Source: an uncultured virus (IMG/VR IMGVR_UViG_3300025849_000011) (lineage: Duplodnaviria; Heunggongvirae; Uroviricota; Caudoviricetes). Taken from it: 64,000 nucleotides of DNA. The position numbers and the translations under genes are program-made. The DNA is taken from the IMG/VR virus record IMGVR_UViG_3300025849_000011; one strand, given 5' to 3'. Below, one piece after another: positions 13,099 through 16,033 of this stretch; positions within the stretch are counted from its first letter, which is position 1; the number at the start of each line of letters is the position of its first letter. The notes under the pieces are model-generated. The model saw only the letters and a list, made by a program, of their open reading frames with translations, searched no databases and had not been told where the DNA came from.

Positions 13099-13449
13099 TT
13101 ATAAAGCAGCATAACCAACTGTTTCTCTCACAATATCATTATGGTTAAATTCTGCCCAATATAACTCATATGCAATACCAGATTGAATACACTCAAACTG
13201 ATGAAAAACTCCGGGTTTTACTTTGGTATAATCTCCTGGCCCTAAAATAGTTTCGTCAACTAAATCATAATCCTCAGACCAAACCTTTATTTTCATCATA
13301 CCTTCTTCAACATAAAATCCATTCCATTTAAATTCATGCATATGTTTGGAACAAACACCACCTTCTTTCATTTGAATTCTATGAAATTCTAATGCACCAT
13401 TTGCTTCAATCAATTCTGTTTGACCCCATACCTTACCAGCGATTGTCAT
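13099..13449 (-). CDS. Cupin domain protein
   Basis: KVWGQTE, CSKHMHEFK.NGFYVEEG, PGVFHQF. Confidence 0.8.
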   Translation of the reverse strand: MTIAGKVWGQTELIEANGALEFHRIQMKEGGVCSKHMHEFKWNGFYVEEGMMKIKVWSEDYDLVDETILGPGDYTKVKPGVFHQFECIQSGIAYELYWAEFNHNDIVRETVGYAAL

Positions 13450-14249
13450 ACTTTACTCCATTTGCTTGCTTCATATATCATATCTATGTTTGATTTAATT
13501 CTTTCATTAAACTCTTCATCTGTTTGTGAATGGAATAGACCTTCACTCAAACCTCTACTGAAACTTGCACTCATATGTGGTGAACGAGACAATCTGGCAC
13601 ATGCTTCCTCAGTTGAATACCCCCCACTTAGACCAACAATCTTTTCAACTGAATTGTATTCATACAAATTATTGTACGTTTCTGAAATATCAGGTATGGT
13701 AAGTTTAAGAATAAGTTGTCCAGGAAAATCTCTACAACGATTCATCAATTCATCATTTAGATGTTTTTCAATGATTGATTTATTAAAAGCATCAATAGGA
13801 ACTTCTGGTTCTACTATTGGCGTGAGGCCAGCGTTTGAAATTCTCCATGCTAACTCAAATTGTTGATCAAGAAGTTTTGGAACATCATACATATCCTTAA
13901 CGATACTTCTCATTTTGGTTCCCACACAACCAGACCCTAAAGCAAAACGTATCATTGAATCAATATCAAATACCTTCAAGAAACCATTTGCTTCACATCC
14001 ACTATCAACCTTCAGAATAGCATGGATACCTTTATTTGCAAGAACAGCCACCATATCCTTTTCAACAGAATCTTTGTAAAGAATTGCATGACTAATCTTA
14101 TCACTTGTAAAGTTTTCGTTCAATACCATACGCAACCGCATACGGTGAACTAAATCCATTTTATTATCTTCAGTATATTCTTGACCATATCGCTCTAATA
14201 CGCCGCCAGTGCTACCACCAGAATGATCCATTGCTGCTATAAATGTCAT
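13446..14249 (-). CDS. fda: Class I fructose-bisphosphate aldolase (bacterial type)
   Basis: FIAAMDHSGGST, LKVDSG, GTKMRS, PIVEPEV, ILKLTIP, LSGGYS, ASFSRGL. Confidence 0.9.
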   Translation of the reverse strand: MTFIAAMDHSGGSTGGVLERYGQEYTEDNKMDLVHRMRLRMVLNENFTSDKISHAILYKDSVEKDMVAVLANKGIHAILKVDSGCEANGFLKVFDIDSMIRFALGSGCVGTKMRSIVKDMYDVPKLLDQQFELAWRISNAGLTPIVEPEVPIDAFNKSIIEKHLNDELMNRCRDFPGQLILKLTIPDISETYNNLYEYNSVEKIVGLSGGYSTEEACARLSRSPHMSASFSRGLSEGLFHSQTDEEFNERIKSNIDMIYEASKWSKV

Positions 14250-14339: not shown

Positions 14340-15302
14340 TTATATAAAAAAATCTTCTAAAGTTGTAGGTTTTTCGTACTGTGGAACTAAAGTACCGGCT
14401 GTTACTTGACGATCAAAATTCATAATATGATCACCAAGCCACTTAACAACAGGAACTGTCATTCCATTCAGCATGTACAATTGCATATTAGATAGATCAC
14501 AACCATCAAAAAAGTCAGTAGGGTAACCCTGTAGGGCTAAACGCTCATTAACAGCCAACTTACGCAGACCACCACTGTCTAGTACCAGATCAGTAAAGTC
14601 TTTGTAATCACGTTTCAAGATAGTAGATGCTACTCCTTTTTCGCCAAACTGGTCACTTCTTTGTCTAGTAAAGAAGGCAAATGGATATCCGCCTTTGCAT
14701 CCCTGTTCAAAATTCCAAGGGCGGCTTTTTTGGATATGTAAAGTTTTGGATTGGATTGCTTTGTCACTGCGCCCGACAAATCCGAATATATCGGCTCCTT
14801 CGGGGATTCCATCACGGACTGCCAGAATGTAAACTCTACGTCTTCGCTGTGGGACTCCAAAGTATTGGCTGTCGCACATCGTCCAAGTCGCATCGTACCC
14901 GATTTCGGCAAGGTCTTGCAGAATGACATTAAGTCCTCTTGAAAGCAATGCGCTGACGTTTTCAATAACTGCATATTTTGGTTTTGTTTCATCAATTAAT
15001 CTCCTAAATTCACGCCAAAGGCCAGAACGTTCGCCTTCAATGATACCTTTGTTTTTACCGCCTATAGATATGTCTTGACACGGAAACCCACCACAGATCA
15101 AATCAAAGTCAACCCCATCACGTTTAAGGTCTTCGCCAGTTACTGTTGTGACGTCACCATATATGGGAACCCCTTGCCAATTCTTTTTCAAAACACGTTT
15201 GGCGTATTCTTCGTATTCACAAAACGCAACAGTCTCCATGCCAGATTGTTCAAACCCTAGACTGTAGCCACCACTTCCACTGAATATATCGAATACCTTC
15301 AT
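14340..15302 (-). CDS. C5 cytosine DNA methyltransferase family protein
   Basis: DIFSGSGG (I), GGFPCQD (IV), IENV (VI), PQRRRRVY (VIII), ERLALQGYP (IX), atypical motif X LNGMTVPVV. Confidence 0.9.
   Translation of the reverse strand: MKVFDIFSGSGGYSLGFEQSGMETVAFCEYEEYAKRVLKKNWQGVPIYGDVTTVTGEDLKRDGVDFDLICGGFPCQDISIGGKNKGIIEGERSGLWREFRRLIDETKPKYAVIENVSALLSRGLNVILQDLAEIGYDATWTMCDSQYFGVPQRRRRVYILAVRDGIPEGADIFGFVGRSDKAIQSKTLHIQKSRPWNFEQGCKGGYPFAFFTRQRSDQFGEKGVASTILKRDYKDFTDLVLDSGGLRKLAVNERLALQGYPTDFFDGCDLSNMQLYMLNGMTVPVVKWLGDHIMNFDRQVTAGTLVPQYEKPTTLEDFFI
14630..14992 (-). CDS. Nested +1-frame protein inside the C5 MTase (M.EcoHK31I beta-like)
   Basis: 120 codons open; AGGAG 8 nt before the ATG; LYISKKAALGILNRDAKADIHLP motif. 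Confidence 0.6.
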   Translation of the reverse strand: MKQNQNMQLLKTSAHCFQEDLMSFCKTLPKSGTMRLGRCATANTLESHSEDVEFTFWQSVMESPKEPIYSDLSGAVTKQSNPKLYISKKAALGILNRDAKADIHLPSLLDKEVTSLAKKE

Positions 15303-16033
15303 GCTTCGTTTCTTTCTATGATATAACCACCAAATTCACCATAGCGAAAAAATTCAGTGTATTTGTATGAACTAAAAAGAGTTTCTGGATTTATCGGACG
15401 CTGTACACCAGACAAAGATAATTCTTTCTTAATAATATCATCTGGTTTTGCGCCACTTTCCATCTTTGCCCTCAAAGTAAGGCGAGAAAGCACAGTAGAT
15501 ACATAACCACCCGTTGGAATGGTTTTCTCTACTATCACCAACGCGCCATCATCTCTTAGGCTATCCATCATGCCATCAAGCAACAAGGTTCGTCTGTGTG
15601 GTGGTATGAACATCATTGTGAGGAACATTACCCCAAAGTCAAATTCTTCAAATGAATGTTGTGTAGCATCTGTAACAATCACAGGATTGTCACCAGTGTA
15701 CATATCAGCCATCTGTTGGCTTTTTTCAATCGGAATAAAGTCTACGTTTCTCTCAGTGAGAATAGACTTCAAGGTACGCTCTACATTACCTGTACTCGCA
15801 CCAACATCATAAACAGTACCCTGTTCTGGTATGTAGTGATTAGCGATTTGAGCAATAGCACTACTTACCATATCGTACCAAGGTAGTTGTTCGCGCACAT
15901 GATCGTCAAAGTTTCTTGCGACCTTGACGTCATTAAATGTCCAGTTTGTGGGTATATCAATCATATTTCCATACTTTCTTTTCATACATATGAATTTAAA
16001 TATTCGGTTTCTCCAAATAAACTCATAATACAT
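15299..16033 (-). CDS. CmoA-like (carboxy-SAM synthase family) protein
   Basis: WTF...VARNFDDHVREQLPWY, VYDVGASTG, GALVIVEK, FFRYGEFGG; true start may be the MIDIP Met. Confidence 0.8.
   Translation of the reverse strand: MYYEFIWRNRIFKFICMKRKYGNMIDIPTNWTFNDVKVARNFDDHVREQLPWYDMVSSAIAQIANHYIPEQGTVYDVGASTGNVERTLKSILTERNVDFIPIEKSQQMADMYTGDNPVIVTDATQHSFEEFDFGVMFLTMMFIPPHRRTLLLDGMMDSLRDDGALVIVEKTIPTGGYVSTVLSRLTLRAKMESGAKPDDIIKKELSLSGVQRPINPETLFSSYKYTEFFRYGEFGGYIIERNEA

Follow-up and report, generated by a model that had tools for sequence, protein, structure and literature searches.

A gene for a C5 cytosine DNA methyltransferase in the genome of an uncultured virus of the Caudoviricetes very probably contains a second gene, which lies wholly within the methyltransferase coding sequence, is read in the +1 frame of the same strand, and has been conserved as an overlapping gene across homologous loci. 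Comparison of these loci shows purifying selection that is specific to the +1 frame. The product of the nested frame, which has a mass of about 13 kDa, is proposed to be an accessory chain of the enzyme, and it is likely, although less firmly established than the coding status of the frame, that this chain docks on the hinge and the variable region of the methyltransferase chain, referred to here as alpha. The features on which the analysis is based are as follows, where positions are those of the “window”, the whole stretch of 64,000 nucleotides of viral DNA that was analysed.

14340 to 15302, minus strand: C5 cytosine DNA methyltransferase (alpha, the host frame), complete, 320 aa, from the list of open reading frames and its translation
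14630 to 14992, minus strand: nested +1-frame open reading frame of 120 codons plus stop, wholly within the methyltransferase coding sequence
14993 to 14995, minus strand: alternative start codon TTG, one codon before the nested ATG, with a +1-frame stop codon (TAA) immediately upstream
15001 to 15005, minus strand: Shine-Dalgarno-like AGGAG that arises from the host codons AGG-AGA and lies 8 nt before the nested ATG
14885 to 14917, minus strand: nested residues 26-36 (KTLPKSGTMRL), an invariant segment, modelled as a strand paired with alpha 137-141
14633 to 14812, minus strand: nested residues 61-120, a predicted small helical domain, overlapping the variable region of alpha, where conservation is poor

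The nested frame begins with ATG at position 14992 and ends with the stop codon TAG at 14630-14632, so that its product has 120 residues, or 121 if translation begins at the TTG. Its register relative to the host gene is +1, as given by the distance between the two starts (15302-14992 = 310 = 3x103+1). A sequence-only reading of the window had described a 120-codon frame enclosed by the methyltransferase gene, with an AGGAG created by host AGG-AGA codons 8 nt before its ATG; the exact coordinates and the +1 register agree with the first part of this description, and the AGGAG can be read at 15005..15001.

The host gene is a well-supported member of its family, and matches both PF00145 (E 1.1e-54; score 186.5 bits, cut-off 22) and TIGR00675 (E 1.6e-49; score 169.3 bits, cut-off 100.65). 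Motifs I, IV, VI, VIII, IX and X are held in frame 0, with the signatures FxGxG, PCQ, ENV and QRRR all visible. The claim of the same reading that the main chain retains motifs IX and X is borne out by two blocks near the alpha C-terminus, one like motif IX (residues about 247-265) and one like motif X, both of which are kept in the alignment of 15 homologues. Alpha has all ten motifs and approximately the length of a normal monomeric C5 methyltransferase, and it is therefore perhaps active by itself. Upstream of the gene lies an open reading frame of 244 aa (15299-16033, minus strand), which overlaps the methyltransferase start by 4 nt (ATGA) and which has no match in Pfam at E <= 0.001. Downstream of the gene are a frame at 13446-14249 that is weakly similar to class-I aldolases (E 1.9e-4, under the cut-off) and a cupin at 13099-13449.

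An open frame inside a conserved gene need not encode anything, since it can arise as a by-product of the conservation of the host amino acids, of codon bias or of RNA structure, in which case no second protein would exist. The window gene taken alone leaves some room for this explanation. A +1 open run of at least 121 codons occurs in 2.4% of synonymous-codon shuffles of the gene (n=5000) and an ATG-initiated frame of at least 120 codons in 1.3% of such shuffles (n=5000), while shuffling of the order of whole codons gives 0.6%. The length of the nested frame in this single gene is accordingly only mildly unusual (P about 0.01-0.02), and is unremarkable for 64 kb of sequence. In addition, the N-terminal half of the nested frame overlaps motifs VI-VIII, the most conserved motifs of the host, which force part of the +1 sequence.

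The comparison of homologous genes gives a different picture. The closest relatives found by tblastn among phage records were those of Vibrio phages, with 54% identity at best, and scans of viral contigs recovered further relatives together with near-identical copies. The sequence-only reading had named the depletion of +1-frame stop codons across homologues as a check on the nested gene, and the depletion is pronounced: in 16 of the 17 homologous lineages (about 47-76% protein identity) the same stretch of 117 codons contains no stop in the +1 frame, where between 2.55 and 6.09 stops per gene are expected and the probability of finding none lies between 0 and 0.034 for each lineage. These expectations were computed from shuffles that preserve each host protein and its codon usage. 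For the first nine genes, which are related by 47-66% protein and 55-66% DNA identity, there are no stops in any gene against 3.3-5.05 expected (probability of none 0-0.0145 each). Seven of the eight further lineages are also without a stop, and the eighth, L093, has a single one.

The depletion is confined both to the frame and to the overlap, and this confinement counts toward a genuine overlapping gene. Summed over the nine genes, the observed and expected numbers of stops are 0 and 38.2 in the +1 frame and 110 and 106.6 in the +2 frame, and beyond the overlap the +1 frame of these genes contains 14-19 stops against 10.6-16.2 expected, which represents no depletion. The three antisense frames of the nine genes have 16, 21 and 78 stops against 31.4, 35.3 and 68.4 expected; the partial depletion in two of them (window 14640-14990) is probably a by-product of dual coding on the sense strand.

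A gene that is translated in two frames should also carry the imprint of the second frame on its synonymous sites. Among pairs of codons that encode the same host residue, the identical codon is used in 1712 of 2434 cases (70.3%) inside the overlap, compared with 789 of 1856 (42.5%) and 493 of 1334 (37.0%) in the two flanks, and host third-position identity is 62-63% inside the overlap against 39-40% outside it. The identity of the +1 peptide between homologues shows a corresponding rise, from 24-26% outside the overlap to 51% inside it. From the window sequence, the host frame had been described as degenerate alongside the C-terminal half of the nested one. The comparison supports that description: in alignment columns 180-209 the host frame is 28-31% identical while the +1 peptide is 43-44% identical. 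Conservation of the host codons in these columns is lowest at position 1 (0.39-0.48) and highest at position 3 (0.62-0.67). This pattern of a high position 3 and a low position 1 is the phase expected from coding in the +1 frame, and it indicates that the +1 frame is under selection.

These results bear directly on the explanation that there is no second protein. Shuffles that preserve the host protein and its codon usage still expect 2.6 to 6.1 stops per gene, and the conservation follows the +1 codon phase precisely where the host is least conserved. Two further observations, described below, also stand against this explanation, namely that domains homologous to the nested peptide are read in frame as parts of other proteins and that genes which have the same host motifs and carry the domain as a fusion lack the stop depletion. 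Taken with the comparative evidence, they leave an open frame without a product barely credible.

The nested peptide of the window belongs to no Pfam, NCBIfam or PHROG family (hmmscan against PHROG at E <= 0.01 returned 0 families), and a search for proteins of similar length found no match. The nested frames are mostly not called as genes, as is illustrated by the Vibrio phage relatives, in which the nested frame is annotated in none of three records. Gene callers discard long same-strand overlapping genes. Relatives can nevertheless be detected with a profile (A1) built from six nested peptides, which was scored against 1.84 billion cluster representatives and matches 818 protein clusters at E <= 1e-3, 18 of them at E <= 1e-10. 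The window peptide has both traits of this family, the conserved TLPKSG.MR segment and the helical domain. The nearest clusters in the ESM Atlas are viral “hypothetical proteins” of 143-160 aa with scores of 0.93-0.94, which should be regarded as leads only.

Many of the matches to the profile fall in the C-terminal half of the peptide and occur in larger methyltransferase-like proteins, where the domain lies in frame and N-terminal to the target-recognition domain (TRD), motif IX and motif X, and where PF00145 spans just the C-terminal part of the protein. Four library proteins of 401-571 aa (P0039, P0064, P0076 and P0088) show this order, with the nested-like domain at the N-terminus followed by the TRD, motif IX and motif X; in their protein sequences a motif I/II-like segment is also found, in frame, at the extreme C-terminus.

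A different arrangement is found in the library protein P0136, which consists of a complete methyltransferase of the window type with a nested-like domain in frame at its C-terminus (residues 353-446). Scans with P0136 recovered the DNA of six distinct genes of this fused type (L130, L203, L204, L205, which is identical to L206 and L207, L208 and L209), and in all six the domain sits in frame at the C-terminus of the same type of methyltransferase. The +1 frame of these genes, over the region homologous to the nested frame, contains 2-9 stops, in line with the 3.6-10.3 that shuffles predict (P 0.14-0.88), and the conserved nested peptide is missing from the +1 translation of all six. Stops thus occur at chance level in the fusions, and the +1 frame stays open only in genes that do not carry the domain in cis. 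This loss of the nested frame in the fused genes ties the nested product functionally to the enzyme.

The signals that would allow the nested frame to be translated are less uniform than the frame itself. Most lineages have a +1-frame stop immediately before an ATG or GTG at the start site used in the window. Five lineages (L095, L101, L102, L107 and L112) have no start at this site, and in these the frame remains open for 13-27 codons upstream, as far as another ATG. An AGGAG with 8 nt spacing is also present in L090 and L111, and a GAGG with 7 nt spacing in L003, while no Shine-Dalgarno-like site was found in L001, L108, L110 or L092. The nested start is thus not strictly conserved, and only about half of the lineages have a Shine-Dalgarno-like site. 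In L093 the single stop noted above falls at nested codon 4, behind an ATG and one codon (L093:1498-1509), with the other 116 codons open; this gene has no ATG ahead of the invariant methionine of the SGTMR segment, so that a start would need a downstream TTG. No promoter-like site was found within the methyltransferase gene upstream of the nested start, and no terminator was found. The simplest assumption is therefore that the nested frame is translated from the methyltransferase mRNA.

If the start codon and the Shine-Dalgarno-like site are not uniformly conserved, then the +1 frame might be entered not from a start of its own but by ribosomal frameshifting, which would fuse the N-terminus of alpha to the nested chain. 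A library protein of 213 aa, P0001, reads in just this way, its first approximately 94 residues being those of a window-type methyltransferase which run straight into the nested frame. P0001 is a single metagenomic sequence known only as a protein, and it fits a frameshifting deletion or a metagenome assembly error. The window also contains a slippery-site-like sequence right before the nested stop, where a lysine-rich AAAAAG run is followed by GGAG (14633-14650, minus strand). This run was considered as a frameshift site and dropped, because it is not kept in the homologues, and no conserved slippery site was found. Frameshifting is also at odds with the many lineages in which a +1 stop immediately precedes the first start, with the extension of the frame to an upstream ATG in those lineages that lack the usual start, and with the natural fusions, which join the domain to a complete enzyme and not to a truncated one. 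Entry by frameshifting is therefore considered improbable, and initiation at a start within the nested frame is the preferred reading.

The structure of the nested chain alone was predicted by AlphaFold2 from an alignment of 106 rows (A2), with a mean pLDDT of 73.9 that conceals a division of the chain into two halves: residues 1-60 have values of 52-64, while residues 61-120 have values of 80-97. The C-terminal half had been thought, from its sequence, to resemble a real folded unit, and the prediction agrees. It is a basic, helical domain with helices at 72-75, 88-101 and 107-119 and the conserved pattern LSxKAxxGI..R...LP..L, and the residues that are nearly invariant among the 106 sequences are E62, L72, L86, S87, A90, G93, I94, R97, L105, P106 and L109. 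A search of PDB sequences with the nested chain returned nothing below E 0.05. At the level of the fold, a Foldseek comparison with the PDB gave a best E of 4.7, which is no match, and a wide search with VIA-align gave a best Z of 4.4, to helical hairpins only.

The association of the two chains was modelled using the alignment of alpha (A3, 15 rows) and that of the nested chain, both of which were our own. The model of the complex scored 0.89 in all three runs, whereas the best of three controls scored 0.01. Among solved complexes, 116 of 157 reach the mark applied to this score, as do 2 of 215 mismatched pairs; these counts are a rough guide only for the present case, where our own alignments were used. 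Since the nested chain has no sequence relative in the PDB, it is unlikely that the complex passes because the prediction method recalls a known structure. The runs share at least 87% of their contacts, the pLDDT of the partner is at least 76, and the pLDDT of alpha is 85-86 when it is modelled with the nested chain, compared with 70-74 when it is modelled with unrelated partners.

Two regions of the nested chain make contact with alpha in the model. The invariant N-terminal segment pairs as a strand with alpha 137-141, and the contacts between nested residues 31-35 and alpha 137-141 are those with the lowest predicted error; the two strands are encoded by nearly the same nucleotides. Nested residues 59-116 pack against alpha 143-151, 165-225 and 236-257, and 8 of the 11 nearly invariant nested residues fall in the predicted interface. 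Binding of the nested chain to alpha is thus supported by the modelling. The suggestion made from the window sequence, that the nested chain would supply part of the variable or target-recognition region, is compatible with a predicted interface that covers alpha 165-225 and 236-257.

If alpha, with its full set of motifs, can work alone, then the nested product might be translated without being a structural subunit, acting instead as a regulator of the expression, timing or specificity of the enzyme, or as a DNA-binding or anti-defence factor that acts independently and only shares the locus. A small, helical, basic C-terminal domain with no assigned fold would suit such a role. The six in-frame C-terminal fusions with decay of the nested frame argue instead for action in the same complex, as do the score of the complex model relative to its controls and the mapping of the conserved residues onto the predicted interface. 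A role outside the enzyme is accordingly judged unlikely, and the nested product is more naturally regarded as a chain of the methyltransferase itself.

The mechanism that is proposed on this basis is as follows. Internal initiation on the methyltransferase mRNA, in the window at the ATG behind the AGGAG, would most likely give rise to the nested chain. Its first approximately 60 residues would be extended, with the strand TLPKSGTMR joining the sheet of the catalytic domain beside alpha 137-141, and its last approximately 60 residues would form the small helical domain, seated on the variable and motif IX regions of alpha. The two chains would then constitute a heterodimer, in which the nested chain may complete or stabilize the small, DNA-recognition side of the enzyme. 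From the comparative and modelling results we infer independent translation of the nested chain, its binding to alpha, and a need for it in the activity or specificity of the enzyme.

The best precedent for such an arrangement is M.EcoHK31I, an alpha/beta C5 methyltransferase (YGGCCR), which PMC3404938 cites together with M.AquI as an exception among the monomeric C5 methyltransferases. According to PMC2836561 and PMC3404938, the alpha chain of M.EcoHK31I contains motifs I-VIII and X together with the TRD, the beta chain contains motif IX and is encoded entirely in another frame of the alpha gene, and both chains are needed for activity. The sequence-only reading had invoked this enzyme in proposing a second, +1-frame protein that acts with the methyltransferase, and all of the computational tests that were run support a partner of this kind. 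The second frame of the window likewise lies wholly inside the methyltransferase gene in another frame, and the chains of M.EcoHK31I are described as associating. The division of the motifs is nevertheless different: the alpha chain of M.EcoHK31I lacks motif IX, which is found in beta, while the alpha chain of the window keeps both IX and X, and the nested chain of the window has no motif IX block and ends in a helical domain that differs from the M.EcoHK31I-type chain. With motif IX in the main chain, the window locus is, as judged from its sequence, a variant of the M.EcoHK31I idea and not a strict member of it.

Loci that are closer to M.EcoHK31I in this respect are found elsewhere in IMG/VR. 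Another 71 loci (L012-L083) are related to the window methyltransferase over residues 1 to approximately 165, and hold motifs I-VIII and X in frame 0. A motif IX-like pattern is found in frame 0 in none of the 71, while a motif IX-like W[LMV][MLQ]G occurs in the +1 frame of 61. The longest +1 run exceeds the +2 run in every one of these loci (106-360 against 26-104 codons), and the G+C content is <=0.50 in 15 of them. These loci look like the M.EcoHK31I arrangement in their sequence organization. Their “beta-type” +1 frames match phrog_1008 (L057, L115) and 2861 database clusters, and the name EcoHK31I does not appear among the 120 listed matches. The comparison of the C-terminus of the beta-type frames with motif IX of alpha gives a probability of 3% (E 0.014), and the assignment of motif IX to these frames rests on the pattern and on the published descriptions.

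The profile of the nested peptides can be aligned with that of the beta-type frames (A4, which serves as a proxy for M.EcoHK31I) over 57 N-terminal columns (hhalign 97.8%). This alignment raises the question of whether the nested frame descends from an M.EcoHK31I-like beta gene and is now in decay, having remained open without function after the TRD and motif IX moved into the main frame; the nested stop does lie just ahead of the main-frame TRD and motif IX. The 57 columns are forced by the motifs VI-VIII of alpha that are common to both types of locus. A relic at 55-66% nucleotide identity would be expected to have acquired stops, yet there are none in 16 of the 17 lineages; its synonymous sites are still constrained, and the frame did decay in those genes where the domain is supplied in cis. 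It is highly improbable, on these grounds, that the nested frame is a relic.

Nested frames are also present in other branches of the superfamily. Complete C5 methyltransferases of a prophage type (366-545 aa), which belong to another subfamily, contain +1 nested frames of 152-175 aa (L160:1655-2155, L165:669-1124, L125:1111-1635 and the relatives L167-L179) that have the same helical domain at the end. The window-type peptide aligns over its full length with these frames (hhalign 97.7%, E 1.4e-12), which match phrog_16143 (L160 at 2.9e-17); L165 is also PHROG-positive. A single 206-kb viral contig, IMGVR_UViG_3300024358_000009, contains two diverged copies of the window-type methyltransferase, L098 and L102. 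The nested frame of L102 is intact, and that of L098 is presumed from a row which is identical to the examined L095.

Annotated examples exist in GenBank records of Streptococcus thermophilus phages. In phage P0095 (KY705255.1), the gene of a complete C5 methyltransferase of 287 aa (P0095_50) encloses P0095_51, a +1-frame coding sequence of 139 aa at L202:752-1171 (phrog_16143) that bears the label “DNA methyltransferase”. In contrast to the window chain, P0095_51 stops within the helical domain, and it is known from annotation only; it may be a truncated form. M.AquI, as described in PMC3404938, is similarly a C5 methyltransferase of two polypeptides, split about the variable region, but its subunits are consecutive pieces of the enzyme (motifs I-VIII, then IX-X) and not a whole enzyme with an extra chain from an overlapping frame. 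The mammalian GNAS products XLalphas and ALEX, which are described as two proteins that are encoded in overlapping frames of one transcript and that bind each other, are unrelated and eukaryotic, and offer a conceptual parallel only. The literature that was searched, which included few subscription journals, contained no account of the present variant, of a wide distribution of nested methyltransferase partners, or of the S. thermophilus nested coding sequence.

To our knowledge, few long same-strand overlapping genes with a proven function are known from bacteria and phages. The locus described here shows the M.EcoHK31I idea in a second architecture, which a clade of marine phage enzymes has conserved, and the C5 methyltransferase superfamily, as the searches indicate, commonly contains +1-frame partners. 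A broader reading, to which we give slightly less than even credence, is that many of the “monomeric” C5 methyltransferases of phages, prophages and mobile elements may in fact be two-chain enzymes. Their second chain would come from a deeply conserved +1 frame of the methyltransferase gene itself and would take three or more interchangeable forms: short and nested, as in the window; nested with motif IX, as in M.EcoHK31I; and fused in frame. The domain would perhaps have been overprinted on motifs VI-VIII and later copied into cis. If the activity or specificity of the enzyme depends on the nested chain, this chain would need to be included in predictions of phage methylation, in the heterologous expression of such enzymes and in the engineering of split methyltransferases. 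The locus also provides a clean natural system in which to study the evolution of two interacting proteins on the same nucleotides.
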